From Minisyncoccia bacterium (GTDB lineage: Bacteria; Patescibacteriota; Minisyncoccia; Phycocordibacterales; UBA918): a stretch of DNA of 64,000 nucleotides. The translations under genes were made by a program, and so were the position numbers. The notes below the pieces were generated by a model. It was not told the DNA's origin. It searched no databases and saw nothing but the letters and a program-made list of their open reading frames with translations. Below are positions 1,542 to 61,173 of this stretch, one piece after another; position 1 is the stretch's first letter, and each line of letters starts with the position of its first letter. The DNA is taken from the NCBI GenBank assembly GCA_041738755.1, contig JBGSPE010000002.1, positions 13,290 to 77,289 of the forward strand, in the 5' to 3' direction.

Positions 1542-1934
1542 GGGGATGCTAGGCATCGACGGTTAGTCGTGTCGGATGTGTGCGTGTCGAAACAGGTAAT
1601 CAATTCGTTAAAAGGTTCCACTCTGTATTTGCAAACAAAGCAGTACCAAGTCCATACGCTAACGCGTTTGGATTCGCTCCAGCTGTAGCGTAACTTTACG
1701 CTCGCTCTGGCGATGCTCTCGCAGTAAGTGTCTCGTACGCTGTGTTGGGTAGAATAACCATGAGACCCTGGAAACCATTGTCGTTGTCATAGGTGCCCAA
1801 GATTGTAACAACTCGAGTGACTAGTGTTTTGAGTTTCCTTAAGCTCGTTACTTTAAATTAAAGGATTCTCTACACACGTAGATGCACCTTCGCACCCTAA
1901 TTCGGACGTGGATTCAATTTCCACCATCTCCACC
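1542..1934 (+). ncRNA. ssrA: Transfer-messenger RNA (tmRNA, SsrA), one-piece
   Basis: The 5' GGGGATG pairs with the 3' CATCTCC and has a G3:U wobble, the alanine identity element. The T-arm is GTGGA-TTCAATT-TCCAC, followed by ACC. An internal tag reading frame starts with GCA at 1631 and ends with TAA at 1691; it encodes ANKAVPSPYANAFGFAPAVA. The gene lies directly downstream of smpB. Confidence 0.85.
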
Positions 1935-1997
1935 GACATAGAAGTATGTAGAAGAATATGTAACAACATAGAAGTTTACTCGCAAGGGTAGGCTTTT

Positions 1998-21896: not shown

Positions 21897-21899
21897 ACT

Positions 21900-22499
21900 T
21901 TATACGTGATTACATTTTTTATAACTCTCTTCAATTACTGTCTCAAACGCTTCAATCGCAGCAGACGTATCTTCACTCGTATTATCAATAATGACATCGG
22001 CACGTTCCTTAGCTTCTCGTTCAATCAGGTAGCGGTCGTAGCGAGCAGCTAACTCAGCTTCACTCATAGCCGCCCGCTTGAGTGCCCGGCTCTTGAGATT
22101 TTCCCAGCCACCGGCTTCTACATATATGAGTGTCATTGCTTCGCGTGGCAAAAGCTCCATCAGCTGCTCTACACCCTGCACTTCAATCTCAGTTACCACG
22201 AGCTGACAGTTTATCAGATGTGGAATAATTTCACTCTTCAGCGTCCCGTATCGATGTTGTCCATAATGGGCCCATTCAAAAAAGTCTCCGGCGGTAATTT
22301 TAGTATCAAATTCCTCGCTGGTAAGGAAATAATAGTCCTTACCCGGCACTTCTCCCGGTCGCATAGCCCTCGTGGTACAAGAAATGGTCACATAGACGGT
22401 AGGATGATGCTCTTTGAGGTGACGAACGAGAGTGCCCTTCCCGCTCCCGGTAGGGGCCATCATGACGAGAACATGGCCATTAATTGAATCAACTTCCAT
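21900..22499 (-). CDS. gmk: Guanylate kinase
   Basis: P-loop APTGSGKGTL; TTRAMRPGEVPGKDYYF; EWAHYGQHRYGT. Confidence 0.8.
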   Translation of the reverse strand: MEVDSINGHVLVMMAPTGSGKGTLVRHLKEHHPTVYVTISCTTRAMRPGEVPGKDYYFLTSEEFDTKITAGDFFEWAHYGQHRYGTLKSEIIPHLINCQLVVTEIEVQGVEQLMELLPREAMTLIYVEAGGWENLKSRALKRAAMSEAELAARYDRYLIEREAKERADVIIDNTSEDTSAAIEAFETVIEESYKKCNHV

Positions 22500-22550
22500 A
22501 ATGACACGAGCCTACCAACTTTTTGTCTCCAGCGCAACAAAAGCTATGGT

Positions 22551-23195
22551 ATGCTAAAAATTATGAAAAAGAAACACATCATTACTATTTCTGGAAAACC
22601 AGGCAGCGGTAAATCTTCAACCGCCGACCGAGTAGCCGAACTCCTTGGATACACTCGCTACTCATCAGGTGACATGGTACGAAAACTACTCGCGAAGCAA
22701 CGAATGACCCTTGAGGAGTACAATGAAACGGCCGAGGCAAATCATAGTCTCGATACGCACATTGACGAAGAATTACGACAGCTGCGAGAACAAAAAGATA
22801 TTGTTATCGACTCACGACTCGGCTTCTACTGGATTCCTGAATCATTCAAAGTGTATCTCGACCTTGATCTTGAAGTGGCGACTGCCCGTATTTTTAAAGA
22901 TTCAGTCCATAATCAAGGACGAAAAAGTGCTGGTGAGGGAGGCTCTTCACTACCGGATGTCGCCAGACAGGTCCGCGAACGCATGAATAACGAACAGCGA
23001 CGGTTTAAAACCATGTATGGTATTGACCCCTTTAATAACCAAAACTTTGACTTAGTCATTGATACCTCACGTCACGATCCACAAACAGTCGCCATCACCG
23101 TCTTTGATATCTACCGAGAATGGCTTGAGAGTGAAACATGGACCAAACGTCACAGCTCGGTTCCACTTGGGTTTTCGTTTAAGAACGAATATTAA
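22551..23195 (+). CDS. Cytidylate-kinase-like P-loop NMP kinase
   Basis: ITISGKPGSGKSS P-loop in a small nucleotide-kinase scaffold. The exact specificity is uncertain. Confidence 0.45.
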   Translation: MLKIMKKKHIITISGKPGSGKSSTADRVAELLGYTRYSSGDMVRKLLAKQRMTLEEYNETAEANHSLDTHIDEELRQLREQKDIVIDSRLGFYWIPESFKVYLDLDLEVATARIFKDSVHNQGRKSAGEGGSSLPDVARQVRERMNNEQRRFKTMYGIDPFNNQNFDLVIDTSRHDPQTVAITVFDIYREWLESETWTKRHSSVPLGFSFKNEY

Positions 23196-23196
23196 G

Positions 23197-23227
23197 AAAA
23201 GGACCCCCTTAAAGGGGTCCTTTTCTT
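23197..23227. terminator. Intrinsic terminator
   Basis: AAAAGGACCCCC-TTAAA-GGGGGTCCTTTTCTTT. Confidence 0.75.
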
Positions 23228-23399
23228 TACTCTATTATAGAGAATTAGAAATTTCTTCTGAGGCAAGGTGGACTCAAGGCTTGTAAAATTGCTGAGGATA
23301 CGAGGCGGACAAAGAAAAAGACTCAAGTGGGGCACGTGCCCAGCGAGAGTCTTTTTCTGTAGTCTAACGAAGTAGATTTAGTGATTTTACGAGCCTTGT

Positions 23400-25138: not shown

Positions 25139-25139
25139 A

Positions 25140-25769
25140 CTAGGCTTTCTTTAGTTGCTTGAGCGCTTCGACAGCAGCGCGGGCGTTATTAAGTTTGTTC
25201 TTACTTCGTGAGAAGATTTTTGCGGTGATGTCTTTGACTCCACCCATTTCAAGTACAGTTCGAACTGAAGAACCGGCCACAAGTCCACGACCTGGGGCTG
25301 GCATCATCATTACTTCACTTGATGCATACTTCACGTGTACATCGTGTGGGATGTGACCATCTTTGTTCATTGGTACCACAATCATGTGGCGCTTGGCGTC
25401 ACGTACCGCTTTCTCGATTGCGAGCTGTGTGTCACCGGCCTTACCGATACCAACTCCTACCTTTCCTCGCTTGTCTCCAATCACCATGGCAACTGAGAAA
25501 CTAAAGCGACGTCCACCACCCATCACACGAGTTACGCGTCGGATGCTGATAATTTTTTGTTCAAACTCGGGTCGAACTCGTTCTGTTCGTCCACCGCGGC
25601 GAGGCCGTCGATTTGCTCCACCTCGTCTGTCGTTACTGTTGTTGTTTCGACGTCGTGGTCCTCGATCAGTTGTCTCACCAGCAGGTGCATCGGTCGTAGT
25701 TCCCACTTCTGGGACTACTGCTTCTGACGTAACGTCAGTTGTAGCTTCCGGCTGTTTTGTTTCTGACAT
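25140..25769 (-). CDS. rpsE: 30S ribosomal protein S5 with an N-terminal low-complexity extension
   Basis: RVTRVMGGGRRFSFSVAMVIGDKRGKVGVGIGKA core. Directly abuts rplO with no rpmD (L30) between them. Confidence 0.9.
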   Translation of the reverse strand: MSETKQPEATTDVTSEAVVPEVGTTTDAPAGETTDRGPRRRNNNSNDRRGGANRRPRRGGRTERVRPEFEQKIISIRRVTRVMGGGRRFSFSVAMVIGDKRGKVGVGIGKAGDTQLAIEKAVRDAKRHMIVVPMNKDGHIPHDVHVKYASSEVMMMPAPGRGLVAGSSVRTVLEMGGVKDITAKIFSRSKNKLNNARAAVEALKQLKKA

Positions 25770-26690: not shown

Positions 26691-27086
26691 TTACCAAATG
26701 ATGAAAAGTTGCTCACCACCCACTTGCTTCTCCTTGGCTTCCACGTTTGTGAGGATACCAGCTGGAGTAGAGAGGATCATGTGTCCCTTACCAAACTTTA
26801 CGGGGTGAATATCAGCGACCTTGGTGTACAGACGTCGTCCTGGCTTAGAAATACGCTTCACGCCATTGATTCGGTGTGATCCGTCTTCGTACCGCAACGT
26901 GATTTCAAGTGTTTTGTCTTGAACTCGCTTGCCCTGCTCTACCGCAGAAACGATGTAGCCTGCTTCTACTAACTTCTTTGCTACGCTGTGGCGGAGTTTT
27001 GAGTATGGTACTGAAACCGTACTCTTACCTACTGCCCCGGCGTTTTTGAGGCGGATAATGAAATCGCCGATAATGTCTCCTACCAT
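26691..27086 (-). CDS. rpsH: 30S ribosomal protein S8
   Basis: [13 protein letters not shown] ... [14 protein letters not shown]. Confidence 0.9.
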
Positions 27087-27265
27087 GATGATTTTCTTAC
27101 GCCTGGTATTTGTCCTTCATGTGCGAGTTCGCGGAAGCAAATTCGACACATATCAAAATCACGCATGTAGCCGTGCTTTCGTCCGCAAAGTTTGCAGCGT
27201 CGCACGACTCGTGACTTAAACTTCGGTGTACGTTCAGAACGTACGATTAAAGCCTTTCGAGCCAT
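27080..27265 (-). CDS. rpsN: 30S ribosomal protein S14, type Z (zinc-binding)
   Basis: 61 aa with CKLCGR ... CRIC. Confidence 0.85.
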
Positions 27266-27634
27266 CGATATGTTACTTAAAGGTGGGACCGTATCACCTA
27301 GGTTATGGTGACGTGTCCCCTAATAAATCCAGCAACTACGTTAGTAGTGCTTTGAACGGATAGCCAGTGCCATCTCGTCTTGCGGCCAACAATACCAGAA
27401 TTACCTAAAATAGCAAGGAAATATAAGGACGCGCATACGGTGAGTCTCTCTCTATAAAGTGGTATGTACATCGTACTGACTTACCGTTTGGTAGAAACGC
27501 AAAATAAGATTGTATTGTAACGCTACAAAACTTGACAAAGGTAAATTAAAATGCTAAAAAATCCGCAGCTTTGCGGGAATTCGCCCGCTCCGCTCTTTGA
27601 CAACTCGTGATAACCAAAACTGAGAGGTCAGAAT

Positions 27635-27886
27635 GTGAATGCCTGTGACGAAAAAACAGCAACCGTCACCCATGTAATCCCAGGAAACGACCCTTTTGCT
27701 GTCGCTAAGAGTCCGATATTACCTGATCAGGTAACGTTCTCGCTTGGCACACAACGAAGGGTTTGGAACGAAAGTGATTATCCTACAGTGGGTGCAGAAG
27801 TCGTATTAAGCGACATCAGAAAGGTCAAGGGAAAGTGGCGGGCGTATCATGCCCGTTTTCTGAGACCAGAAGACGAAAAGGAATAA
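27635..27886 (+). CDS. Hypothetical small protein (83 aa), the first gene of the GC-rich island
   Basis: ORF with a GAGAGG RBS. Predicted beta-rich. No confident family. Confidence 0.35.
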   Translation: MNACDEKTATVTHVIPGNDPFAVAKSPILPDQVTFSLGTQRRVWNESDYPTVGAEVVLSDIRKVKGKWRAYHARFLRPEDEKE

Positions 27887-27892
27887 AGGACC

Positions 27893-28543
27893 ATGTCAAA
27901 AAAAGGAAGGCTCATGGGAGCTCTTGAAGGTCTCGGTCTGGTGGAATCCGAAGGTGGCGAAACGCAACCTGAAGCAACCGCGACCCCTGTACCTTCACCC
28001 CAAACCAGTTCGCCGCCTTCTACCATAACAGCTACGGCTGTTTCTGGAGCTGACCCGGCAATGGTGACGAAAATCCGCGCAGCGGTTACCAATGCCGGAC
28101 ACTCGCCTCGCCTCGCCAGTTTTCTGGCTCAACTCGAGATCGCCCGCCAAGCCTTCCCGAACGATGAAAAAACTGCAGTAGCTGCAGCACTCGCATTTTC
28201 GAAGCTGTCTGCGGCCGAGATTCGTGAGGAGTTGTCAAAGTCTGCTGCAGCTGCACTCGTCGAAGCGGAGCAAAGCATCCGCAATGATATTCGCAATAAA
28301 CGCGAAAATGCTTCTGGAGAACTCGAGAAAAAGTCATTGCAGCTGCAGGCCGAAGTGACTAGTCTCGAAGAGCAGCTCGCGTCAATCTCGCAGAAGCTCG
28401 CAGCTGCCAAAGCTGGACTCGCTGGCATCACCAGTGAACGTTTGGCGACCGATACTGGCATTAATGAAATGGAAGCGAAGGCAATGTCCAGCCATGCGGT
28501 GGTCAAAGCCGAACTCGACAAAATCAACACCCTGCTGCCATAA
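27893..28543 (+). CDS. Hypothetical coiled-coil protein with a Pro/Thr/Ser-rich N-terminal linker
   Basis: 216 aa, high GC, Ala/Glu/Leu-rich heptad-like C-terminal half. Confidence 0.4.
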   Translation: MSKKGRLMGALEGLGLVESEGGETQPEATATPVPSPQTSSPPSTITATAVSGADPAMVTKIRAAVTNAGHSPRLASFLAQLEIARQAFPNDEKTAVAAALAFSKLSAAEIREELSKSAAAALVEAEQSIRNDIRNKRENASGELEKKSLQLQAEVTSLEEQLASISQKLAAAKAGLAGITSERLATDTGINEMEAKAMSSHAVVKAELDKINTLLP

Positions 28544-28576
28544 TTTTACGCAGCCCAGTAGAAAAGGAACTAAGCA

Positions 28577-29605
28577 ATGGCTGGATCTTCCAACCAAATG
28601 AATGATTTCTTCGACCAACTGCCGACTCCCCCCAGGGAGAAGGTGGTGCGCGGCGTCTGGTATGCCGGAGTGAGCGTCGCTGGCCTGGCCGGCTTCCTCA
28701 CCGTCATGCCCTACGTAAACCAAGCGCTTTCGCTTGGTCTCGAAGGTGCAACTCTCTTCGTGAAGCTGGGTGCCGTCGGTGTCATTGGTGCCGCCGGTGC
28801 TTACACTGCTATGTCCTTCTGGACCCCGTTCAAACGGAAGGTCGAGAGCATGGCACGCAACACTACCATCGCTATCTTCGGCGAAGATCCGATTACGCCA
28901 CTCCATATGTGGCTGGCGGAAGTTCGCGAAGACCTCGATGGGGTCCTCACCTCTGCTCGTGAAATCGGCGGTCTTATTGCCGAAAACGATAAGACGGTCG
29001 AAGACAACCTGCACTTCCTTTCGGAAGCCGACAAACGCGTCGCGGCCGCAACCAAGCGCCACGGCGAAAACAGCATCCAGACCCGAACCGCTTCGATCGA
29101 AGCCAAAGGTTTCAAGGACCGTGCAGACAACGCGAATCGTATCAACCATCCGCTTAAGGCGACCTATGTCACACTGAGCCAGGTAGGCGATGCAATCAAG
29201 ATGACCGAACGGCAAGCCGAAACCGACATCGAGACTGCGACCCTCGAATGGCGTGCAGCGCTGGCAGCTGAAAAAGCTATCGGCAAGGCACAACGTTCGC
29301 TCGGTAAGCGGAGTCAGCGCTACGTCGAGGCCACTATGGCCTTCGACATCATCCGTCAGAAGTACGCCGGCACATTCGGTCAATTGCGCGCGCTGCGTCA
29401 ACAGACTGAAGAGACCATCAGTAGGATGGACCTTAACGACGCTGTTGCTCACGAAGAAGCTCTCGAGCGACTTCGCGAAAACAGCCAAAAACTGCTCGGC
29501 TTCCAACCGACACTTCCGGCGCCCGACTTCACTACCAATCAAGGGACGCCTGTCCTCATTGAGGGTCGGTCGGTCAACGAACTCAAGCTTTTTGACGATA
29601 AGTAA
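28577..29605 (+). CDS. Hypothetical membrane protein: 2 N-terminal TM helices and a ~250-aa coiled-coil/helical domain
   Basis: 342 aa. Hydrophobic segments (GVWYAGVSVAGLAGFLTVM, LFVKLGAVGVIGAAGAYTAMSFW) followed by a long helical region. Confidence 0.45.
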   Translation: MAGSSNQMNDFFDQLPTPPREKVVRGVWYAGVSVAGLAGFLTVMPYVNQALSLGLEGATLFVKLGAVGVIGAAGAYTAMSFWTPFKRKVESMARNTTIAIFGEDPITPLHMWLAEVREDLDGVLTSAREIGGLIAENDKTVEDNLHFLSEADKRVAAATKRHGENSIQTRTASIEAKGFKDRADNANRINHPLKATYVTLSQVGDAIKMTERQAETDIETATLEWRAALAAEKAIGKAQRSLGKRSQRYVEATMAFDIIRQKYAGTFGQLRALRQQTEETISRMDLNDAVAHEEALERLRENSQKLLGFQPTLPAPDFTTNQGTPVLIEGRSVNELKLFDDK

Positions 29606-29668
29606 TCAAGTCGTTACGTAAGAGCTAATAACACCAAACCAGTACCTGAGAAGAAAAGGAATCAAGAA

Positions 29669-31216
29669 ATGGCATACAATATCTCAAGCAAGGGCAAAAT
29701 CGCTCTCGCGGGACTCGCAGGCCTCTTCGTTGTCGGTGCCTATGGACTCTGGTCCGCAGTGCCCGACAACTGGAAATCTGCGGCAAGTAGCGTGGTCGCA
29801 CCCGGTGGTGACACTATTGCGATCGAAAGCAGCGAAGAAGCAATCGATGTCTGCGTCGTCACCTGGGGTGGCTACGCCGGCGGACAGTACTTCAACCGCG
29901 GCTTCAAGCCGAGCGATGCCTCGCTGTACAAGCAGCGCTACAACCTGACGGTGAACTTCCACGTCATCGACGACTTCAACGCGTCGCGTGAAGCGTACAA
30001 GGCCGGCGATTGTGACCTTCTCTGGGCCACGATCGACGCCTTCACGACCGAAGCAGCTACCTTGCAGAAGGCTGGATTCAACCCCAAATTTCTGTTCCAA
30101 GCTGACTGGTCGCGCGGCGGTGACGCCATCGTGGCCGGTCCGGGCATCAAATCGATGTCCGATCTGCGCGGCAAGCGCGTGGCAGTAGCGTTCGGGACTC
30201 CATCCCATACGTTCCTGCTGCGGATGCTCGAGGCAGCTGGTATGACAACCAGCGACCTCACCATCATCGACACAGGTAATGCCATCGACGCCGCCAAGGC
30301 GTTCCAGACTGGCAACGCTGAAGCGGCCGTCGTCTGGTCTCCAGACGATACCGCCAGTGTCAATGCTGTGCCGGGAAGCACGGTGATGATCAGCACGCGT
30401 GAAGCGTCGCACATCATCGCTGATGGCTTCATCGCCGAAGCAAACTACATTGAATCTCACCGAGAAGAGCTGAGAGCCCTCATCGAGGGCTGGATGATCG
30501 GCGCGGGTGATATCAACTCGAATGCGGCGGCCAAGACGGAAGCCTCGAATATTCTCGCTACTGGGCTCAACATCCCGGCAGCAGATGCTCTGGCAGCAAT
30601 CAATAACGTCCGTCTCACGACGCTCGGCGACAACCGCCAGTTCTTCGGACTGGAAAGTGGCGCCACCATGACTGGTGAACGCCTCTTCACGGCAAGCGCC
30701 CGTCTGTACCAGCAGAACGGATACACGTCACTGGTTCCGGAAATTCCGGCCTGGCGCAGCATCACGGACATCAGTCTGCTGAGCGGCGTCAACCTGAATA
30801 CTCCGAACCAAGCTGCCGAAGGTCGCACGAGCTTTGCTCAAGCTGACACTTCGGCCGCAAGTGCACAGGCAATCGCCTCTCGGGGTCTGTCGGTGCAGTT
30901 CGCGACCGGATCGGCTACGCTGAGCGATGAAGCAAAGGCGGTGATCATGCGTGAATTCGTGCAAGGCACTGGTGATTCGTTCGCCGGCGCCCGAGTGCGT
31001 ATTGAAGGGAATACGGACAACACCGGTTCCCGCACCACGAACGTAACTCTGTCACAGCGTCGTGCTGAGGCAGTGGCCAACTTCCTGGTGACCCTCGGCT
31101 TCGATCGCAATCGCTTCGTCGTCGTTGGCAATGGTCCGGACAAACCCGTCTGCAACTCGCAGGACGCAGCCTGTATGGCACAAAATCGCCGCACAGACTT
31201 TGAGCTGATTCGGTAA
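29669..31216 (+). CDS. ABC-transporter substrate-binding protein (NMT1/SsuA/TauA-like) fused to a C-terminal OmpA/MotB-like peptidoglycan-binding domain
   Basis: N-terminal TM anchor. Central periplasmic-binding fold (KRVAVAFGTPSHTFLLRMLEAAG ... AVVWSPD). C-terminal OmpA_C-like segment (VRIEGNTDNTGSRTTNVTLSQRRAEAVANFL ... NRRTDFELI). Confidence 0.6.
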   Translation: MAYNISSKGKIALAGLAGLFVVGAYGLWSAVPDNWKSAASSVVAPGGDTIAIESSEEAIDVCVVTWGGYAGGQYFNRGFKPSDASLYKQRYNLTVNFHVIDDFNASREAYKAGDCDLLWATIDAFTTEAATLQKAGFNPKFLFQADWSRGGDAIVAGPGIKSMSDLRGKRVAVAFGTPSHTFLLRMLEAAGMTTSDLTIIDTGNAIDAAKAFQTGNAEAAVVWSPDDTASVNAVPGSTVMISTREASHIIADGFIAEANYIESHREELRALIEGWMIGAGDINSNAAAKTEASNILATGLNIPAADALAAINNVRLTTLGDNRQFFGLESGATMTGERLFTASARLYQQNGYTSLVPEIPAWRSITDISLLSGVNLNTPNQAAEGRTSFAQADTSAASAQAIASRGLSVQFATGSATLSDEAKAVIMREFVQGTGDSFAGARVRIEGNTDNTGSRTTNVTLSQRRAEAVANFLVTLGFDRNRFVVVGNGPDKPVCNSQDAACMAQNRRTDFELIR

Positions 31217-31402
31217 TCACGAGTACCAGTACCTAGTGGGTTGGGACCTAGATCCCAACCCACTACCTTCCTCCAAGGGTATGTGAACAATCACATTATC
31301 CTTGGAGGCATCTCTCACTTTGCAATAGTTTGTTGATTGAGAGCTGCCAAATTATCGAGGGAGCATGTACCTTAAGAATTAAAGAAAGAAAAGGAGAACA
31401 TC

Positions 31403-32209
31403 ATGCGTAAGCTTACGAACAATCTGTTCGAGCTACGCGGAGAAATCACCACTCAACAGAAAACCATCCTTGGTATCCTTGGAGTAGTTGTCTGGTTCTT
31501 GAGCTGGTGGCTCATCTCTGCACAAGCGTGGCTTCCGCCACAGGTTGCACCAGGACCATTTGCGGTCTTGGGTGCCATCCCCGAGTTGCACTTTGAGCAT
31601 GCTCTGGTGCGAAACGTCTGGTACACCTTGCAGATGAACCTGCATGGCACAATGAACGCAATTTTGTTCAGCCTGCCAATCGGTTTACTGCTCGGCCTAA
31701 CACCGTTCCTTCGTGGCATGGCGACGCCGTTTTATGTCGGTTTGAGGTTTATTCCTCTCCCAGTCATCATCGGTCTGTTCATGCTCTGGGCCGGTATCGG
31801 TTATTCGATGAAAACATGGTTCCTCACCTTCGCCATCATCGTTTACCTGATCCCGACAGTAATCCAGCGCGTCGATGAGACGCCAAATATCTATGTCAAC
31901 ACAGCACGAACGCTGGGGGCAAATAGATGGCAAATCATCTGGAATGTCTATATCCCTGACGTGTTCTCACGCGTCTGGGACGACATTGTTATCTTGGTGG
32001 CTATTTCCTGGACGTACATCAGTATCGTCGAGGTAGTCAATAAGAGCGACGGTGGCATCGGCGCACTCATCTATATGGCACAACGGCAAAGCAGTCCTGA
32101 GAAGTACTATGCACTGCTTCTCATCCTCATGCTGGTGGCCTATCTGCAGACGCTCGCGTTCAAGCAGATCGGTCAGTGGCTATTCCCCCACAAGCGAATT
32201 GGGAGGTAA
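31403..32209 (+). CDS. ABC transporter permease (NitT/TauT family)
   Basis: Six TM helices. EAA-like loop region ([20 protein letters not shown]). Confidence 0.7.
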
Positions 32210-32211
32210 TC

Positions 32212-33024
32212 ATGGTTAACGGAGTAACCTTCGTCGACACAGCACTTCCGAACATCGTAGAGTTCAGGGGTGTGACACAACAGTATGGTGAGAAGACAGT
32301 GCTCAACGAGCTCGATCTTCTCATTGAAGACAAACCTAATCAGGGTCAGTTTGCTGTGATTCTCGGCATCTCTGGTTCAGGTAAATCGACTCTGTTTCGG
32401 TACCTTAACGGACTGAGCAGTCCGACCAGTGGTGAAGTCCTCATCAAGGATCAGCCGATTGGTCAGTTCGGTGCTGTCAGTACAGTGTTTCAAGACTACT
32501 CGTCTCTACCTTGGTTTTCGGTGCTGCGAAATGTTGAGCTTCCGCTCAAAATTCGTGGCGTCCCGAGAAAAGAACGACGTGAACGGGCACTCGAGATGAT
32601 AGAAAAAGTTGGTCTCAAGGGGCACGAGAAAAAATACGCTCGTGCGCCAGAGCTTTCTGGCGGACAATTGCAACGCGTTGCAATTGCCCGTAGCCTGATT
32701 GCAAATCCAGAACTTATCCTTATGGACGAACCGTTCGGTGCGCTTGATGGCATTACGCGTTACGAAATGCAAATGCTCCTCAGTAAGTTGTGGAGGGATC
32801 TGCAGTCAACGGTCCTGTTTGTCACGCACGATCTGCAGGAAGCTGTGCTGCTTGGGGATGATATCTATATCCTTGACCCGCGTATCGGAAAAATCGGCAG
32901 GCACATCCCTGTGAATCTCGGTCTTGACCGAGACATCACAATCAAAAGAGACCCACGCTTCATGCAACTGGTCCTCGAGGTCGAAGAAGCACTTATGGCA
33001 ACAAGCATACCACTTCAACCATAA
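32212..33024 (+). CDS. ABC transporter ATP-binding protein (NitT/TauT family)
   Basis: Walker [10 protein letters not shown], signature LSGGQLQRV, Walker [13 protein letters not shown], and an H-loop. Confidence 0.8.
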
Positions 33025-33123
33025 CAGTTCTTCGATGCACCTTTTGGGGCGGGCTCTTTGAGTCCGCCCCTTTATCGAAAATTTTTGCTTTCAAACATCA
33101 TTGGATAACGAAAAGGATCCATT

Positions 33124-33981
33124 ATGCAACTATCAATTGAACTCGCTGACCTCGAAGCAATGATCCCCGATCACCGTGGCAATACGCTCTTTGAAAGAGC
33201 GTTAGCAACAGGTACAACGGGAGAGGATCTGATTAACCTCATCGCCAACTATATTCAATTCAATTCAAGTTTCGGCAGCGGCGTTGCAAACCTCGCAGGA
33301 GAAATTGGTTCTCAACCGGATCTTTTCCAAGATATGGCTGAGCCCTTGAAGATATTTGCCGATCGAAGCGTAGAGGTTGCCAGCCGCATCTTATTTGCCG
33401 CCGTTGATGAATTCAACGACAGCGGTACTGAACATCTTGATACGCACCGCACCCTCGCACAAGCCGCGCTGAAAGGTATCGGACAGTTCTTCGGCTACAC
33501 ACCGTCACAGCTGAATGACATCATCTCAATCAACTCGGTTACGACCGAAGCGATTGAGCAAGTACGTCTCGGTTATGCTATCAGCCAAAACGTAACTGAG
33601 GAAGTCCTCTTCCGTGCGCTGGGATTCCATATGGGATCTGAGATTCTGGCCGATGAAGAGTTTCGACTGATTGATGAACTTCTCAAGCAGGAGCATCCGG
33701 AGCTGGTCAGCCATCTCGAACGGACCCACGTCGAAATCAACGGATATCCTCACTCAACATACTATTGGATTCGCATCCATACCACGGTTGAAGCAGATCA
33801 TTTTGCATCTGCTTCAACTGGGGTCAATCTTGCACTTCAATACTATGCGGGCAAGCATCAGCTCGAAGAGGTCAGGAAATGGGTCCTCGAAGGTTTCGCT
33901 ACCTTTGCATCAATTCAATCGATGTTCATGCAAGGTCTGCTGAATTCTCAACTGGTGAGCGATGTCGCTACCAACAACTAA
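33124..33981 (+). CDS. Hypothetical helical protein, possibly heme-oxygenase-like (TenA/PqqC/CADD-type) fold
   Basis: 285 aa. Spaced E/H/D motifs (EEVLFRALGFHMGSE, HTTVEADHF) resemble HO-like di-metal or TenA-like proteins. Sits next to a NitT/TauT transporter, as TenA does with ThiXYZ. Weak assignment. Confidence 0.3.
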   Translation: MQLSIELADLEAMIPDHRGNTLFERALATGTTGEDLINLIANYIQFNSSFGSGVANLAGEIGSQPDLFQDMAEPLKIFADRSVEVASRILFAAVDEFNDSGTEHLDTHRTLAQAALKGIGQFFGYTPSQLNDIISINSVTTEAIEQVRLGYAISQNVTEEVLFRALGFHMGSEILADEEFRLIDELLKQEHPELVSHLERTHVEINGYPHSTYYWIRIHTTVEADHFASASTGVNLALQYYAGKHQLEEVRKWVLEGFATFASIQSMFMQGLLNSQLVSDVATNN

Positions 33982-34104
33982 TCAATGATCTTTTGAAACT
34001 ACAAGGCGGGGCTCAATGAGCTCCGCCTTTCTTCTATTTGACGGAAAAACAGTTCCCTGTATATTGGTGCTAAACCTGGTCTTTGACTACCATAGGAGGA
34101 AAAA

Positions 34105-34665
34105 TTGGAAACACGTAATCTGCGTAAAATCGCCACCGGCCTGAAAATGATTTCTGGTGCATTGGTGATGGGAGCCTTACTCTTGGAGTCCATCAAGAAG
34201 GACGTTGCCCCTCCATCACCACAGAAACAATCAGGGAGCATCCAGAGTCAAATGGTGATTGTGGGGATTCGTCTCCTTGAACTTCAGCGGACTGAAGGTC
34301 AATCTCTGCAGGATTTCATGGAGATTCGATACAGTGCTTTGTACTTACTCGGTCGAGCCGGCCATTCACTGACCGAGCAGGAACTGGATGAGCACGCAAA
34401 TGCGTTTGCCCACTTCCATCAGCAACGCTACCAGCTTTTTGGACAGGACGTCGACCGAACACTCTCAGAATGGTATCAAACATCTGGAGAGAGTCGTCAG
34501 ATTCCCCTGCAGACCTTGCTACAGAAATGCGAATTAACGAACCATACACTTGACATGTCGGGCTATGTTTCATTCTGTCTCACCGGCACAGATTTTGACG
34601 GGAGGAAACAAGACATTGGCACAGAAGAGTGGGAGCAGATCAAATATCGCTTCAACATTCAGTAA
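34105..34665 (+). CDS. Hypothetical protein
   Basis: 186-aa ORF with a possible N-terminal signal/TM segment (MISGALVMGALLL). Confidence 0.35.
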   Translation: METRNLRKIATGLKMISGALVMGALLLESIKKDVAPPSPQKQSGSIQSQMVIVGIRLLELQRTEGQSLQDFMEIRYSALYLLGRAGHSLTEQELDEHANAFAHFHQQRYQLFGQDVDRTLSEWYQTSGESRQIPLQTLLQKCELTNHTLDMSGYVSFCLTGTDFDGRKQDIGTEEWEQIKYRFNIQ

Positions 34666-34870
34666 CATATTGGCTTGCTCGTGCTCTGCATGAGCAAGCC
34701 AAGAGTTACGTAATCCCAACACCTTACGTATCGACTGAAAACCCATAAGACTCGCTAGTTTTATGGGTTTTATTATTTGCCATTTATTGTATAAACCGAT
34801 GGAGAACACTATTATAAAAATTACCCCGCCAATGAAGAAGTTGTTACTTCTTCATTGGTGGGGTAAAAGG

Positions 34871-35389
34871 TCATCCTCGATACTCTGAGGATATGCTTCG
34901 CTGCATGAGCCACGTCTCCCTATGAAACACAAATTGCCCAGGCAAAAGTTGCTCGACTTTGGTACAGAGATTTGAACCCTGGCGTGTGACATCAATCACA
35001 AAACAATCACCTTCAGTACCGACAAAAACACTGTAATGCCCTGGATTGAGCAGTTTTGGCTGTTTAAGGAGTACTTCAAGTAACAGCTGTTCTGAAAGAC
35101 TAGTGAGACCCTTCTTTTGGTAGTGACTCCGAACTGATTCACGCGGAATTCTCTGCTCACGACTCACTTCATCATGAGCCAAAACAATCTCCCGAGTTGG
35201 ATCAAGCCTGTCAGTCGAACGTTTTTCCAAAATTGCTTGCGTAGCAATCCCGTAGGTAACACCAGAGCGAGGACTGGTTACCAAAAGTTCGTGCTTTGAA
35301 AGCGATGTTGAAACCTTCGACAGATCTACCAAGGTCGGTCCAGGCCAGTGGCGACCGAGCGGAACCACAATGCTCATAAGAATCTCCAA
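34871..35389 (-). CDS. Hypothetical protein
   Basis: 172-aa ORF with its own TTGACA-17-TATGGT promoter on the minus strand at about 35405-35433. Confidence 0.4.
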   Translation of the reverse strand: MEILMSIVVPLGRHWPGPTLVDLSKVSTSLSKHELLVTSPRSGVTYGIATQAILEKRSTDRLDPTREIVLAHDEVSREQRIPRESVRSHYQKKGLTSLSEQLLLEVLLKQPKLLNPGHYSVFVGTEGDCFVIDVTRQGSNLCTKVEQLLPGQFVFHRETWLMQRSISSEYRG

Positions 35390-35445
35390 ATAACGAAATC
35401 GGTCTAAACCATACTACTTATTAAGATAATTGTCAAAATTACACA

Positions 35446-35475
35446 AAACCACCTCACGGAGTGAGGTGGTTTTTG
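35446..35475. terminator. Terminator downstream of rplE
   Basis: AAAACCACCTCAC-GGA-GTGAGGTGGTTTTT. Confidence 0.7.
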
Positions 35476-35493
35476 TATTACTTAGAGAGAAAC

Positions 35494-39052: not shown

Positions 39053-39425
39053 AACTGATTCAAGGGCATTGATGGTGAAATTCTTTGGCGCTACGGAATT
39101 TTATCGTTCATCGTACAAGGAGTACGTCTCACTCAAAAATTCCTAAGCTTCGCGAATTTCCCTCACCACTGCACCTTTCATTATTAGTATTTTCTAGTAA
39201 CCCGCATGTCGTAACTCGTCAGTGTAATACTGAAACGAGCCGCCCAGTGGCGGCTGATTGAGAATCCCTTATAAAGACAGGTAACGGCCGGCCTTAGTAG
39301 GGATTCCCAGTCCTTTATTTTGTTGTTTTGTTAGTCTCCTTAAGATAGTAGAGACCAACGTGCGACAAAGGTTGGAACCCGCTGAGAATACCAAAATACC
39401 CAGAAAAGTCAATCATTTCTCCATT

Positions 39426-39444
39426 ATCAAGGTGTCACCTTGAT
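39426..39444. promoter_or_regulatory. Perfect 19-bp palindrome ATCAAGGTGTCACCTTGAT, a candidate dimeric-regulator operator
   Basis: Exact dyad symmetry, ~110 nt upstream of the small peptide gene. A second GC palindrome (CCCTAGG-CCGGT-CCTAGGG) lies at 39459-39477. Confidence 0.4.
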
Positions 39445-39553
39445 ATCTTTTAAATTCTCCCTAGGCCGGTCCTAGGGATAATTAGGCTTATTTTACAAAT
39501 ATCTATTTACAAAAGTAAAAATTGTAGTGCTGTAAAAAGAGGAGGATTGCATT

Positions 39554-39673
39554 ATGGGGTACGAAATTGTCGTGTTTATTGTCGTTCTAGGCCTGTTTGG
39601 TCTCTATCGTGCATGGTCTTACTGGTCCTATCTCCGTGAACTATGGAAGGAAAGCGAACGCAGTGGCCAGTGA
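39554..39673 (+). CDS. Small hydrophobic peptide, 39 aa (MGYEIVVFIVVLGLFGLYRAWSYWSYLRELWKESERSGQ)
   Basis: Near-perfect SD (AAAGAGGAGG) 7 nt upstream of the ATG. One TM helix plus an aromatic/charged tail. Immediately followed by a strong intrinsic terminator. Too short to appear in the supplied ORF track. Confidence 0.45.
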   Translation: MGYEIVVFIVVLGLFGLYRAWSYWSYLRELWKESERSGQ

Positions 39674-39677
39674 GCCT

Positions 39678-39719
39678 GGGAGGTGATGGTTTTCAATCAT
39701 CACCTCCCTTTTGCTTTTG
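39678..39719 (+). terminator. Intrinsic terminator after the small peptide gene
   Basis: GGGAGGTGATGG-TTTTCAA-TCATCACCTCCC followed by TTTTGCTTTTG. Confidence 0.75.
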
Positions 39720-39808
39720 TGGTTGTAACACCACGTGATTACTTGCTTTTTTACGTGTAGAGGAGTTTAATCTTTGCTGGAAGGTTCCACACATAGGGAG
39801 AGGCGCTT

Positions 39809-40252
39809 ATGACCTATAATATCTTTTGGGCAGCACTACTCGCAATTTCGACAGGCATAGTTATCAACGGTTTTACCGCTGGATTGCTATCACAGGGTAC
39901 CAAGCTACCCTGGAAAGATATCTGGCTGCGTTTGACCAGCGTACTCTTGCTGGTTGTGAGTATCACCATCATGTGCTCGCTCATTTCCACCGCTCTGTGG
40001 GCTGTGATTGTCACTTTCGGCCTCAACATTGCTGTTATCTGGAAAACAAGATTACTCAAATCCCATCAGCTGGTTAGCCTGACTGGTTGGCTCGTCGCAG
40101 CTGTCAGCTTCTTAATTGGCCAGTCCGCCGCTACCGGCAACATTGTCCAAGCTGAAACGTTTGTCCTCCTTGGCCTCATCTCCGGTGTCCTTGTTGGAGG
40201 CATCTTAGGTGTTTTGCACCTACTCACCAAGAAGAGCGGTCAGGTAGATTAA
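39809..40252 (+). CDS. Hypothetical 4-TM membrane protein
   Basis: 147 aa, four hydrophobic helices. RBS GGGAGAGG. Confidence 0.5.
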   Translation: MTYNIFWAALLAISTGIVINGFTAGLLSQGTKLPWKDIWLRLTSVLLLVVSITIMCSLISTALWAVIVTFGLNIAVIWKTRLLKSHQLVSLTGWLVAAVSFLIGQSAATGNIVQAETFVLLGLISGVLVGGILGVLHLLTKKSGQVD

Positions 40253-40266
40253 TTATGTGTTCGGTA

Positions 40267-40310
40267 TCGAGGTCTTGCAGAGCAAGACCTCGACCGGGCT
40301 TTTTTATTTG
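40267..40310 (+). terminator. Intrinsic terminator
   Basis: TCGAGGTCTTGC-AGAGC-GCAAGACCTCGA (12-bp stem) followed by CCGGGCTTTTTTATTTG. Confidence 0.75.
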
Positions 40311-40326
40311 TGGTAGTGTAATACGC

Positions 40327-40641
40327 ATGAAACACCGCGGACGAGAACATACGTCACTTACAGAGACTGCTACCATAGTAGTGTACGAGCTAAAAAAAAT
40401 TCCTGGCATCAAAATGATTGCTCCTGGAGAAATACGGAGTAATAAAAGAAGTGCCGGCACCAGATACGTTACGGCAAGCTATACAAATGGTGGCTTTGAG
40501 CTACTTATTAGTGGTCAAAGTATTCAAAAAGTTGCTGTCCATACCAGTGATGATCCGGCAACTATTTTTAATCAACTGCAACAGAGTAAGAAATTGACTG
40601 ATTTCGTTTTCAAGACGAGAGAACGAAAACCAGGGATTTAG
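40327..40641 (+). CDS. Hypothetical protein, ~104 aa
   Basis: Start moved downstream of the terminator that lies inside the longer frame. No recognisable domain. Confidence 0.3.
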   Translation: MKHRGREHTSLTETATIVVYELKKIPGIKMIAPGEIRSNKRSAGTRYVTASYTNGGFELLISGQSIQKVAVHTSDDPATIFNQLQQSKKLTDFVFKTRERKPGI

Positions 40642-40648
40642 CTAATAA

Positions 40649-40933
40649 CTAGTATAAGTATTCTCGCAAATCCTCAACAGTAACCTCAGTTCCTTCGTCT
40701 TGCAGTTTTTGAACTGCGGTTTCAAGAGCTTTACTTACAACAGACCTATCTCCTCCAACAGGATCTAACTTACTCTGCTCAATAACTAATCTTGCTTCTT
40801 CAATTATTTCTGCTTCAATTCCTTGTAAATCTTCTGCTCTTTGTAGTTTTTGTTCTGGAGTGACTACTTCTTTTAATGACTCTGCATTTTTCTGACCAAA
40901 CCTCAATGATGCTTCGGGATTATTGAATGACAT
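40649..40933 (-). CDS. Hypothetical helical acidic protein, 94 aa
   Basis: ORF convergent with the 40327 gene. Confidence 0.35.
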   Translation of the reverse strand: MSFNNPEASLRFGQKNAESLKEVVTPEQKLQRAEDLQGIEAEIIEEARLVIEQSKLDPVGGDRSVVSKALETAVQKLQDEGTEVTVEDLREYLY

Positions 40934-41004
40934 ATGTAGAATATAATACCTTTTTTGCTTAAATCAAAAAAGCCCCGAGCAATCGCACGGGGCTTTAATT
41001 TGTT

Positions 41005-42207
41005 CTATAACTCGTCTAATGCTTCATCAATAAGGTCTTCTGCTTCATCAATAAGGTCAAGTACTTCATCATAGTCCTCATCTTCAAAGGCATCTTCTGC
41101 ATCATTTAATACATCTTCTGCTTCGTCGAGTAGGTCACGTGCATCATCTACATCATCTCCGTCGTCCTCTGCTTCATCAATTTCATTTTCAGCATCATCG
41201 AAGTCGTCCCAGGCGTCATCGAGAGCATCCTCAGCTTCAGACTCCTCATCATCACCTCCACCTTCTTCAATTTCATCTTGAGCATCTTTGACCAGGTCTT
41301 CTACTTCTTCCGCAAGATCCATTGCCTCGTCATAATCTTCATCGTTGAAGGCATCAAGGGCATCATCAAAGAGGTCTTCGGCTTCATCAAGCAAGTCTTC
41401 TGCATCTCCGGTTGATTCATCATTATCTTCTGCTTCATCAAATTCATCCCAAGCGTCATTCAAAAGGTCTTCTACTTCATCAAGTAAATCTTCAGCTTCA
41501 GATTCTTCTGATTCGCCACCAGCTTCTTCAAAGGCTTCCTCAGCTAGGTCATAGGCTTCTTCAAGGAAACCTTCCGCTCCATCAGTATCGTCATTAAAGA
41601 ATTCTTTGGCTGCTTTGAAGAATTCTTCTTTTGCGTCATTAAGATCTCTCGTGGCTCGAACGAAACTATCACCACTCTCAAGATCTTCAATTGCATCTTC
41701 TGCGTCTTGAATGAGCTCAATGGTTTTAATAAACCATGCTGCTAATTCTGCACTTGCTGAAGTAGCCGCACCAGCAACTACAGGTTGCGGTGTAGTGGTT
41801 GGGGTTGGTAGTGGGCTGCTTGGAACTTGAGACAGCGGTGGCGTAGTTCCTCCACCTGCAAGTCCAAGCTTGTAGGCCGCTTGTGAGATAGGGCCAAAAA
41901 TACCCACAGTTGGAGTAATCTGATTGGCTGCTTGCCATTTGCTGACAGCTTCTTTCGTGAGCGTCTGGTAAAGTGTTGTTTCATTGCCTGGTGAACCTGG
42001 ACCACTTTCAGCAATTTTGAATCCATTTTCATTGAGGAATACTTGGAGACATCGGACATCTTCACCTTGTACACCAAGATCAAGAGTACGCGTAAATGTA
42101 CATTCCTCAGCGGCCTGCGATACCGACGGTACCATGGATAATGCAACAAACATCAACACGGTAGCGAGAGCTGTCGTTGATGACTGTGAACGTAAAGTGA
42201 TTTTCAT
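41005..42207 (-). CDS. Secreted protein: signal peptide, peptidoglycan-binding (PG_binding_1-like) domain, Pro/Thr linker, and a ~230-aa extremely acidic Asp/Glu repeat region
   Basis: Signal sequence (LATVLMFVALSMVPSVSQAAE). PG-binding-like segment (DVRCLQVFLNENGF ... LTKEAVSKWQAANQI). The C-terminus has repeated units (EDLLDEAEDLFDDALDAFNDEDYDEAMDLAEEVEDL, etc.), and the DNA is repetitive. Confidence 0.55.
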   Translation of the reverse strand: MKITLRSQSSTTALATVLMFVALSMVPSVSQAAEECTFTRTLDLGVQGEDVRCLQVFLNENGFKIAESGPGSPGNETTLYQTLTKEAVSKWQAANQITPTVGIFGPISQAAYKLGLAGGGTTPPLSQVPSSPLPTPTTTPQPVVAGAATSASAELAAWFIKTIELIQDAEDAIEDLESGDSFVRATRDLNDAKEEFFKAAKEFFNDDTDGAEGFLEEAYDLAEEAFEEAGGESEESEAEDLLDEVEDLLNDAWDEFDEAEDNDESTGDAEDLLDEAEDLFDDALDAFNDEDYDEAMDLAEEVEDLVKDAQDEIEEGGGDDEESEAEDALDDAWDDFDDAENEIDEAEDDGDDVDDARDLLDEAEDVLNDAEDAFEDEDYDEVLDLIDEAEDLIDEALDEL

Positions 42208-42484
42208 AAAATAAGCGATTACTAAGTAATTGACTATAAGTATACCATTATTAGACGGGTAGTCTTTGGGGATAAAACCACTGAGTACTCGCGAATCTTA
42301 CAGATTCTGTACACCTTGACGTTATTTCTCATAAATTCAAAATAACTGGCAAGGCCTTGCGAAATGGGTCCCGTCCCATTTCTCACCCGTCTCGGCTGTT
42401 TTCATTTCTTGGAATGGAAATGAAAACATGCCTGCGACTTGGCAAAAGATGCGCAACTGCCGCAGGGCAGTTGCTAAGCCAAAC

Positions 42485-42510
42485 AAAAAAGCACCAGATG
42501 GTGCTTTTTT
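42485..42510. terminator. Bidirectional terminator at the rplB 3' end
   Basis: AAAAAAGCACCA-GA-TGGTGCTTTTTT. Confidence 0.8.
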
Positions 42511-42517
42511 GTTTGGC

Positions 42518-45252: not shown

Positions 45253-45494
45253 TTCGTATGCACCTTAAATAATAATTTGCTTTTAAAAGTTGTGTAACAA
45301 CTTCAAGGACCCATACGACAAACCGCGTCATTTGGACGCGAGCACAAGCTCGCAAGTCAAAATGACGCGGTTTGTGCCCAGTGGTTCGTACATTGCTGTT
45401 CGAACGTAGGTCTTTAAAAGCTGGCGCAACTATACCAATTTCTGCTTATTTTGCAAGCCCGCACTAGCAAAATGGCTATTTTTAAGCCATTTTA

Positions 45495-45522
45495 TTGACT
45501 TTTAGCAAAAATATGCTATTAT
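45495..45522 (+). promoter_or_regulatory. Sigma70-like promoter for the 45555 gene
   Basis: TTGACT, 16 nt spacer, TATTAT, about 30 nt upstream of the ATG. Confidence 0.45.
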
Positions 45523-45554
45523 ATGGACATCATTTCTCATAGTGGAGACGACAA

Positions 45555-60760: not shown

Positions 60761-61173
60761 AGATTAGACAATAATATTCAGTATATCATGCGAAAAATGA
60801 CGTAATCTTCACAAATCTAAAGAGTTAGTTTGTAGTAACAAACATTACTCAAAAACGATGTAGAGCCCTAATTTGACAAAATTATAATAGTATAGTGTAT
60901 ATACAAATTACATAAGTGTATATTTGACACTAAGTAACTAGTTTGCTATCTTTGGTGAAGATACGTTATCCGCCGTGCAACCAGCACGGCATCAATCACA
61001 GTTTAGTTAGTGTAATTTATACATTTACTAATCATCGGTGTGGGGTGGCGCGTTCGGGGTACCTACCTGGAGCGCTCCACCCCACTCGGAACTGTGGGGT
61101 CTGTTCTTTGACAGAGTACATGTACCCATGTGCACCATACAACCATATTGTCTTAACCTTAAGGAGCCTCTCT

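Follow-up and report, generated by a model that had tools for sequence, protein, structure and literature searches.

The window considered here is a stretch of 64,000 nucleotides (nt) from a Minisyncoccia bacterium of the Patescibacteriota (assembly GCA_041738755.1, contig JBGSPE010000002.1, positions 13,290 to 77,289), and it carries a ribosomal-protein cluster on its minus strand. In this cluster rplE and rpsN, which are normally adjacent, stand 8228 bp apart, and the gap between them holds nine open reading frames (ORFs), termed i1 to i9, of which i1-i7 form a module (called a cassette where its copies are discussed). The gap probably represents the cargo of a slot that is open throughout the lineage; its content appears to be layered, and its centre, i2-i5, to have been replaced by homologous recombination. 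The open slot, the conservation of the module, the discordant histories of its genes and their composition were observed directly, and they carry this interpretation.

An open slot in the ribosomal cluster

The gene rplE (ribosomal protein L5; 35494-36042, minus strand) is the last of the upstream unit rplN-rplX-rplE. The gene rpsN (27080-27265, minus strand), coding for a zinc-type S14 of 61 amino acids (aa), heads the downstream unit, in which rpsH, rplF, rplR, rpsE, rplO and secY follow tightly. Eight of the nine gap ORFs are read from the plus strand, antisense to the operon, and only i9 (34871-35389) lies on the minus strand. A preliminary description of this DNA had reported such a layout together with a strong terminator at the end of the block, and both were confirmed. 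The terminator is a bidirectional, intrinsic-terminator-like hairpin (35445-35473) with a 13-bp stem and T-rich tails on both strands, which closes rplN-rplX-rplE.

L5 of the window reaches 85% identity at the most with proteins from Patescibacteria genomes of the Paceibacteria/Kaiserbacteria type. Metagenome contigs yielded neither a relative above 85% L5 identity nor a further cassette in the rplE-rpsN slot. The junction was surveyed in relatives with both rplE and rpsN visible, 66 from genomes and 43 from metagenomes, and it is open in every one of them, the smallest gap being 94 bp. Gaps range from 94 to 9059 bp in the genome relatives (median 796 bp; >500 bp in 44 and >2 kb in 12) and from 216 to 7773 bp in the metagenome relatives (median 958 bp). 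The cargo is mostly unrelated between genomes, 105 of the 111 gap ORFs having no homologue among the rest. Recognisable domains point to ordinary accessory roles and include DsbA/thioredoxin, aromatic amino-acid lyase, TerC/DUF475, a MacB-type ABC system, ROK and NADAR, as well as one IS200 transposase, and most cargo ORFs in relatives (60/79) are co-directional with the operon. Among these roughly 110 relatives, just one has the cassette in this slot, as the window does, and its island was assembled twice (loci L091 and L092). Conservation of the same genes at this site across the clade, which the preliminary description had named as evidence against acquisition, was therefore not observed.

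Within the fusA-to-map cluster, large variable junctions are limited to five, the remaining junctions having median gaps of 51 bp or less. They are fusA-tuf (median 483 bp; 3676 bp in the window), rpsJ-rplC (584 and 2712 bp), rplB-rpsS (1763 and 3465 bp), rplE-rpsN (796 and 8228 bp) and secY-adk (1347 and 1503 bp).

Signals on both sides of the rplE-rpsN junction are shared with relatives. A terminator-like hairpin within 150 nt after rplE was found in 67 of 81 relatives, compared with 14 of 81 in a shuffled control. On the other side, rpsN is preceded by a promoter-like element (27389-27416, minus strand) with a -35 TTGCTA (27411-27416), a 16-nt spacer and an extended -10 TGnTATTGT (27389-27397); it is 84-90% conserved over about 40 nt with L019, L006, L005, L017 and L002 (blastn, alignment) and presumably acts as the rpsN promoter. 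Next to it lies an rpsN 5' leader (27282-27334, minus strand), which comprises a hairpin at 27282-27320 (GGGGA..GTCACC-loop-GGTGATACGG..TCCC) and an upstream GGATTTAT box. The leader was aligned with L002, L006, L022, L036, L097, L102 and L110, and RNAalifold gave 9 pairs, 2 of them compensatory; the stem GTCAYC/GRTGAT shows compensatory C-G to U-A changes and is closed by GGAG/CUCC. No Rfam family matched the leader, and a search of 27200-27650 at E <= 10 returned one chance snoRNA match. The leader is native host DNA outside the insert and might serve in the autoregulation of the rpsN-rpsH unit by a ribosomal protein. Because terminators follow rplE and several close relatives share the rpsN promoter and leader, the spc operon appears to be split after rplE in this clade. 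With a terminator on one side and a separate promoter and leader on the other, DNA placed in between would leave ribosomal expression undisturbed.

The other slots of the window also hold cargo. The tuf-fusA gap (49529-53204) contains a 377-aa ORF (50476-51609, minus strand; 56% GC, GC content at third codon positions (GC3) 0.66) that matches the IS110/IS116/IS902 transposase domain PF02371 at E 4.9e-5. The rplB-rpsS gap (39053-42517) carries a 400-aa protein with PG_binding_1 and DUF4398 domains (41005-42207) as well as a gene (40336-40638) sharing 69% identity with an L091 gene in the same slot. A 287-aa ORF of 32% GC without a Pfam match (46988-47851) lies in the rpsJ-rplC gap (45253-47964), and guanylate-kinase- and cytidylate-kinase-like genes lie in the secY-adk gap (21897-23399). 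A second GC-rich rplE-rpsN cargo was seen in L005 (L005:10547-19605; 9.06 kb, 55.7% GC vs 47.2% in its flanks), with seven ORFs of 101-820 aa and an i8-like gene; a Pfam search of this cargo and of two L091 island genes that have no counterpart in the window gave no matches for the seven ORFs or for the two genes.

Composition and history of the gap

The gap is not uniform in composition. The host was represented by 34 clearly native genes (GC 46.4 +/- 1.9%, GC3 0.42 +/- 0.05). GC amounts to 51.1% over the whole gap, 56.6% at 27893-31216 and 46.3% at 33025-35493. The GC3 z-scores against the host genes are 0.1 for i1 (GC3 0.43), 1.6 for i2, 4.2 for i3, 5.0 for i4 (GC3 0.68), 4.2 for i5 (GC3 0.64), 1.6 for i6, 1.5 for i7, 2.0 for i8 and 0.0 for i9. 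The preliminary description had presented the whole block as an island of about 58% GC. A deviating segment does exist, but the compositional island proper is limited to i2-i5 (27893-32209, plus strand; GC 51-59%, GC3 0.50-0.68), which is also phylogenetically discordant, and i1 and i6-i9 are host-like (z <= 2.0).

The island in the relative mentioned above provides the main comparison. L091 is a 345-kb scaffold whose L5 and S14 are both 82% identical to those of the window. In L091 and L092, as in the window, i1-i8 lie between rpsN and rplE with unchanged order and orientation; the L091 island has two extra genes and no i9. Protein identity between window and L091 is 77% for i1, 38% for i2, 51% for i3, 55% for i4, 57% for i5, 79% for i6, 72% for i7 and 39% for i8, whereas i2-i5 are closer (60-69%) to cassettes elsewhere, such as those of L094, L096 and L082. 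In unrooted neighbour-joining trees with 200 bootstraps, the split uniting window and L091 was recovered 180 times for i1 and 200 times each for i6 and i7, as against 1 for i2, 0 for i3, 25 for i4 and 12 for i5. Along a sliding profile, nucleotide identity to L091 stands at 0.77 before about 27.85 kb, sinks there to 0.44-0.60 and climbs back to 0.70-0.78 past about 32.25 kb, with a possible additional L091-like patch at 30.9-31.35 kb. Since i1, i6 and i7 group with L091 and i2-i5 elsewhere, and the discordant genes coincide with the GC-rich segment, the GC-rich centre is most plausibly a homologous replacement in an older island. Two cargo genes of the rpsS-rplB slot are likewise common to window and L091, which suggests inheritance of at least some slot contents.

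The content of the slot would thus consist of a slot-specific gene, i8, a seven-gene module, i1-i7, transcribed away from rpsN with its own terminator, and an orphan, i9. The module may already have been in the slot in an ancestor common with the L091 lineage, or it may have been exchanged with that lineage. Later, i2-i5 would have been replaced by a xenologous, GC-richer version of the cassette that came from a different Patescibacteria genome, with the conserved end genes as homology arms and with no need for an integrase or an att site. As the preliminary description had stated, integrases and flanking repeats are missing: no integrase, recombinase or transposase domain was found in the nine gap proteins (Pfam, NCBIfam, PADLOC, PHROGs), and the gap is flanked by no repeat of 14 nt or more, only by short chance matches. 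A tRNA is absent from the 64-kb window as well (ARAGORN). Att-like flanking repeats were considered as candidates and ruled out, being chance matches and a motif resembling a ribosome-binding site that is repeated before i2, i3 and i4.

Copies of the module were also found away from the ribosomal cluster, in a comparison that the preliminary description had recommended. The order i1-i6 recurs at non-ribosomal loci of small Patescibacteria-type genomes (L082/83, L085, L087/88, L094, L096, L177) at 37-74% protein identity to the window, and the five-gene core i2-i6 occurs in Leptospira and Bacteroidales too. The L094 copy follows dnaK-dnaJ, and that of L082/83 adjoins an rve transposase. In L082 this is an rve-type (IS481/IS3-like) gene (L082:6856-7899, GC3 0.87) directly upstream of the cassette on a 960-kb contig of a size usual for the Candidate Phyla Radiation (CPR), and it hints at a way in which the cassette may move between loci. 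For every cassette protein the nearest relatives belong to other small Patescibacteria-type genomes of 53-65% GC and to no distant high-GC phylum.

In all six CPR hosts the GC3 of the cassette exceeds that of neighbouring genes by 0.10-0.25, even in a host at GC3 0.78. The binding-protein gene has a GC3 of 0.68-0.71 in four hosts with GC3 0.37-0.48, and of 0.94 in the host at 0.78. Within the cassette, GC3 is low in i1/i2 and highest at the binding-protein gene, a gradient shared by the window, L088, L091 and L094. In Leptospira, Bacteroidales and Chthonomonadaceae, cassette and neighbours have the same GC3. Two explanations of the excess are live: repeated transfer of GC-rich versions among CPR bacteria, or a process such as GC-biased gene conversion that maintains the GC content of the copies.

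Several observations weigh against a replacement inside an inherited island. In the ribosomal-protein tree, window and L091 are not sisters; the window is basal (54%) and L091 stands with L003 and L004, whose gaps hold no island or remnants apart from the rpsN leader. A shared ancestry of the island therefore requires several losses or lateral exchange. Judging from the nucleotide profile, there may be more than two breakpoints, and i6-i8 are GC-rich in L091 too. The replacement may have struck either the window or the L091 lineage. Because cassette GC3 exceeds that of the host in all six CPR hosts, one GC-rich donor is inadequate, and the GC signal may in part stem from another process. The assignments of i3 as PspA-like and of i7 as a di-iron protein, described below, draw on weak, sub-threshold profile matches together with a model or a motif.

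Other explanations have to be weighed against these data. The preliminary description favoured horizontal acquisition from a high-GC donor, which in its simplest form would be a single recent transfer of the whole 8.2 kb from a distant donor into an intact rplE-rpsN operon. The raised GC and GC3 in part of the block, the antisense orientation of its genes, unusual beside the mainly co-directional cargo of relatives, and the lack of the island in nearly all relatives would agree with such an event. Yet i1 and i6-i9 are compositionally host-like, the junction is open by at least 94 bp in every relative examined, homologues of i8 sit in the slot of relatives that have no cassette, and the same island is present in a relative at 82% L5 identity. 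The nearest relatives, moreover, differ between genes of the block, and the closest homologues are found in CPR genomes. A single transfer of this kind is accordingly very unlikely and largely refuted already: an accessory, patchy block of partly foreign ancestry is what remains of the acquisition claim, a high-GC donor is only one of the two live explanations of the composition and would not belong to a distant phylum, and one new insertion into an intact operon does not fit. Independent insertions of related cassettes in the window and L091 lineages, the slot being a preferred landing site, would remove the need for an ancestral island and a replacement, the discordance then arising from uneven rates or from two donors with similar end genes. 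This would suit the non-sister position of window and L091, the absence of the island from the sisters of L091 and the mobility of the cassette, which occupies at least six genomic contexts in CPR genomes; a transposase adjoins the L082 copy, and an IS110 transposase lies in another slot of the window. We regard it as unlikely, as gene order and orientation are the same and both islands contain i8, which is not a cassette gene. Rate variation alone is insufficient when i1, i6 and i7 are mutual closest relatives at 90-100% bootstrap and i2-i5 are not, and the shared cargo of the rpsS-rplB slot suggests inherited contents.

The GC content of i2-i5 might also be no foreign mark at all, but be maintained within CPR bacteria by a process such as GC-biased gene conversion tied to frequent recombination, or codon or mRNA selection. 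The excess in six of six CPR hosts whatever the host GC, the equality with the host in Leptospira, Bacteroidales and Chthonomonadaceae and the repeated gradient all speak for such a process; further, the copies are 55-64% identical in protein, and their synonymous sites should therefore be equilibrated. It would leave the phylogenetic discordance and the identity break at 27.85 kb unexplained, and expression-linked codon preference is improbable because the highly expressed ribosomal genes of the host have low GC3. We hold such a process to be a minority possibility with some weight, compatible with the slot interpretation and overlapping it in part. An assembly chimera, in which reads of two populations were joined within conserved cassette genes, comes to mind because the sequence belongs to a metagenome-assembled genome and many CPR populations carry cassette genes. 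However, the 88-kb NCBI contig and a Logan contig assembled independently agree at every one of 9431 nt from rpsH to rplE, both ribosomal flanks included, and the relative has the same slot architecture in two more assemblies; it is therefore very unlikely that a single assembler produced the layout as an artefact. The presumed parents, at 60-79% identity to the window genes, are too divergent for assembler collapse, and a chimera is extremely unlikely. Cargo of an open slot with a replaced centre thus remains the favoured account of the gap.

Genes and signals of the gap and its surroundings

The preliminary description was essentially right on gene content: an ABC transporter, a fusion of solute-binding protein and OmpA domain, coiled-coil proteins and a haem-oxygenase-like protein. 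The binding protein i4 (29669-31216, plus strand; 515 aa) has an N-terminal membrane anchor, an NMT1/SsuA-like domain and a C-terminal OmpA-like peptidoglycan-binding domain. The last matches PF00691 over residues 411-507 (56.8 bits against a cut-off of 27.2; E 3e-15), and in the PDB it matches Pal, YiaD and OmpA C-terminal domains. The binding domain matches PF09084 above cut-off (E 3.9e-11), TIGR01728 (SsuA_fam) in part (E 2.8e-18) and SsuA in the PDB (2x26, E 1.4e-8). Full-length homologues of i4 number 2694 across phyla. Over its full length i4 also matches phrog_25518 of PHROGs (no assigned function; E 1.9e-46), from which it follows that family members are recorded in phage or prophage genomes. 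The permease i5 (31403-32209, plus strand) is of the BPD_transp_1 type (PF00528, above cut-off) and TauC/SaoP-like. The ATPase i6 (32212-33024, plus strand) is TauB/SsuB-like (PF00005, E 3e-27; NF008421, E 3e-59, below cut-off); its start at ATG 32212 is favoured over GTG 32176, in agreement with the L001 gene call. Together i4-i6 look like a NitT/TauT-type ABC importer, in which the OmpA-like domain, an assignment with good support, would tie the membrane-anchored i4 to peptidoglycan. As all NCBIfam scores of the transporter genes fall far under the equivalog cut-offs (TIGR03427, for example, 78 bits vs 333.9), no substrate can be assigned to the importer.

Upstream of the transporter, i3 (28577-29605, plus strand; 342 aa) consists of a conserved N-terminal peptide (MxDFFDQLPTPPREK), two hydrophobic, predicted transmembrane helices at about residues 27-80 and a PspA/IM30/Vipp1-like helical domain. 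Its family comprises at least 204 cluster representatives of uniform length. The protein itself has no Pfam match, and PF04012 is matched by 5 of 71 family members (best E 4.3e-7). When the family profile was compared with the PDB, the top four matches were Vipp1 (E 3e-4), aligned from the DPxxxL motif. An AlphaFold model built from 71 sequences (predicted local distance difference test, pLDDT, 81) replaced one from 13 sequences (pLDDT 60); it has helices at 107-162, 167-239, 247-284 and 289-306, that is, a long alpha1-alpha2 hairpin and then shorter helices. In the PDB, the seven Foldseek matches ranked highest for this model are all Vipp1 or PspA, at weak E-values of 5e-3 to 2e-2 and a TM-score to target of at most 0.63. 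These three weak but concordant lines suggest that the C-terminal 200 residues belong to the PspA/IM30/Vipp1 (ESCRT-III) superfamily. The N-terminal amphipathic helix alpha-0, which in this superfamily serves to bind membranes peripherally, is absent from i3, and the two transmembrane helices stand in its place.

Directly before i3 lies i2 (27893-28543, plus strand), a 216-aa coiled-coil protein with an Ala/Pro-rich N-terminal part, whose position upstream of i3 is conserved at the CPR, Leptospira and Bacteroidales loci. Its nearest copies are in L094 and L096 (60-61%, vs 38% for L091), and profile searches gave no assignable family. A role of i2 as a second PspA was considered and is unsupported: hhalign against the i3 family gave 16% probability, and the PDB matches were generic coiled coils. 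The first gene of the module, i1 (27635-27886, plus strand), encodes an 83-aa protein of no assigned function, and its homologues precede the cassette in L091, L094, L096, L088 and L085.

The last gene of the module, i7 (33124-33981, plus strand), encodes a 285-aa haem-oxygenase-like putative di-iron protein of a family with 537 homologues. Among 43 family sequences E96, H108, E173, H219, E223 and H226 are invariant, the last three forming the motif H219-x3-E223-x2-H226, and we take these residues to be metal ligands by analogy with known family members, whose core helices supply three His and three carboxylate ligands. PF14518 (Haem_oxygenas_2) does not match i7 itself and matches 11 of the 43 homologues weakly (best E 4e-4). 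PDB searches with the single sequence and with the profile gave no usable match, and a comparison with the DUF3865 protein neighbouring the Leptospira cassette gave no significant similarity (E 3.3), by which that kinship was rejected. Since homologues of i7 adjoin the binding-protein-OmpA cassette in L091, L093 (Chthonomonadaceae), L085 and L088, i7 is counted as part of the module.

From these assignments we infer a transport function and a role for the PspA-like protein. The wall-anchored importer would take up a small polar organic solute, i3 with its coiled-coil partner i2 would stabilise or remodel the membrane around the transporter, and i7 might oxidatively process the imported compound.

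The two remaining genes of the gap lie outside the module. The 186-aa protein of i8 (34105-34665, plus strand), of no assigned function, belongs to a family confined to rplE-rpsN slots, where every member is read antisense to the operon (L091, 39%; L002, 30%; L005, L128 and L129); this restriction refers to the fetched loci, no dedicated i8 homologue search having been made. No family in Pfam, NCBIfam or the defence and phage libraries matched i8. The orphan i9, a 172-aa ORF co-directional with the ribosomal genes and host-like in composition, had no family match and no homologue in the fetched loci, again with no dedicated search. A defence island or prophage was also considered for the gap and rejected, as the defence and phage libraries gave only OmpA/MotB-type domain matches and weak coiled-coil matches.

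The signals within the gap would fit three transcription units, i1-i7, i8 and i9. A terminator-like hairpin with 12 pairs, 8 of them GC (34003-34029, plus strand), ends the first; i8 is framed by a promoter-like site (34038-34065) and a terminator-like hairpin (34738-34771); another hairpin (34821-34866) lies just downstream of i9. Directly after i4 there is a perfect palindrome of 16+16 nt (31234-31265, plus strand), possibly an intra-operon stabiliser or attenuator. A AGAAGAAAAGGAATCAAG-like motif occurs 5-10 nt ahead of the starts of i2, i3 and i4 (27871-27888, 28557-28574 and 29649-29666) and is probably a strong ribosome-binding region common to cassette genes.

Elsewhere in the window, the L30 gene is absent between rpsE and rplO (junction at 25139), and a missing L30 is typical of CPR bacteria. 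The S5 protein (25140-25769) has a low-complexity N-terminal extension of about 70 residues rich in Arg, Thr and Asn. At the gathering threshold, the sole Rfam match in the whole window is a tmRNA (1542-1935, plus strand; RF00023, 97 bits), adjoined by a smpB-like ORF (354-800); ARAGORN did not report it, although the tool is designed to find tmRNAs. A further GC-rich stretch (60943-62004 and 62607-63704; 52-55% GC) with a 353-aa ORF without a Pfam match (GC3 0.63) and a PP2C-type phosphatase may be more foreign DNA.

Significance and relation to known systems

Phylogeny and binning of CPR bacteria rely as standard on a block of 16 ribosomal proteins, which is mostly regarded as a single compact unit of synteny. 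The five fixed sites of fast cargo turnover in this clade, partly of foreign composition, can break contigs, mislead composition-based binning and mimic contamination. The locus is also a clean example of how accessory genes are gained or refreshed in a reduced genome without visible integrases, the insulated terminator-promoter gap and the partial replacement of a cassette offering a route of gene gain. A wider proposal, which we put forward tentatively and with clearly less confidence than the account of the gap itself, is that the fixed, transcriptionally insulated slots of the Paceibacteria ribosomal supercluster (fusA/tuf, rpsJ/rplC, rplB/rpsS, rplE/rpsN and secY/adk) serve as exchange sites for accessory genes, with the highly conserved ribosomal genes and conserved cassette ends as homology arms and the GC3 excess as a footprint of GC-biased gene conversion at these loci. 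If true, such slots would allow homologous recombination to exchange cassettes, in whole or in part, in tiny genomes that have few mobile elements. The module is widespread and uncharacterised, and its distribution among CPR bacteria, organisms dependent on scavenging, recommends it for functional work on uptake.

No literature specific to cargo slots in CPR ribosomal operons was found; only one paper for comparison surfaced. In Gammaproteobacteria and Bacilli, the ribosomal cluster is occasionally invaded by a few genes, mostly between operons, and nrdHEF is an example within the rpoBC operon (Brandis, GBE 2021, PMC8046335). Like those invasions, the window has a few unrelated genes between otherwise collinear ribosomal units, with the flanking order kept. 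Unlike them, the breaks here fall within two canonical operons, S10 and spc (rpsJ/rplC, rplB/rpsS, rplE/rpsN), and instead of being rare they occur in essentially every sampled relative, with rapid turnover of cargo. The gap also resembles classical genomic islands in its accessory genes, patchy distribution and partly deviant composition, but it has no integrase or recombinase, tRNA or flanking repeats, and only its middle deviates. The evidence points to replacement by homology rather than site-specific integration.

With its NMT1/SsuA-like domain, TauC/SaoP-like permease and TauB/SsuB-like ATPase, the predicted importer is similar to NitT/TauT importers of the SsuABC, TauABC, NrtABC and ThiXYZ types; it differs in the OmpA-like wall anchor on the binding protein and in the co-located PspA-like and putative di-iron genes. 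In the LiaI-LiaH and PspB/C-PspA systems, a helical protein of the PspA family works with a small membrane anchor. In i3, by contrast, anchor and PspA-like domain form one protein, the two predicted transmembrane helices taking the place of alpha-0, and no PspC, LiaF or two-component regulator is encoded near the island.

The closest counterpart is a neighbourhood described by Ravi et al. (2024; PMC11237479), in which PspA, a binding protein-OmpA fusion, a permease and an ATPase are followed by a protein with a transmembrane segment and Snf7. A link between membrane remodelling and solute transport was proposed there, as a predicted function only. The genes i3-i6 likewise place a membrane-anchored PspA-like gene beside a binding protein-OmpA fusion, a permease and an ABC ATPase, again with a predicted function. 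In the window, however, the coiled-coil and transmembrane-PspA-like genes come before the transporter, the island contains no AAA+ ATPase (Vps4-like or tandem), the ABC ATPase being its only P-loop protein, and a conserved 83-aa protein and a haem-oxygenase-like putative di-iron protein are added, all inside a ribosomal cluster. Each component is thus a variant of something known, and the type of module is already in the literature; the locus is interesting for genome evolution rather than as a new kind of system.

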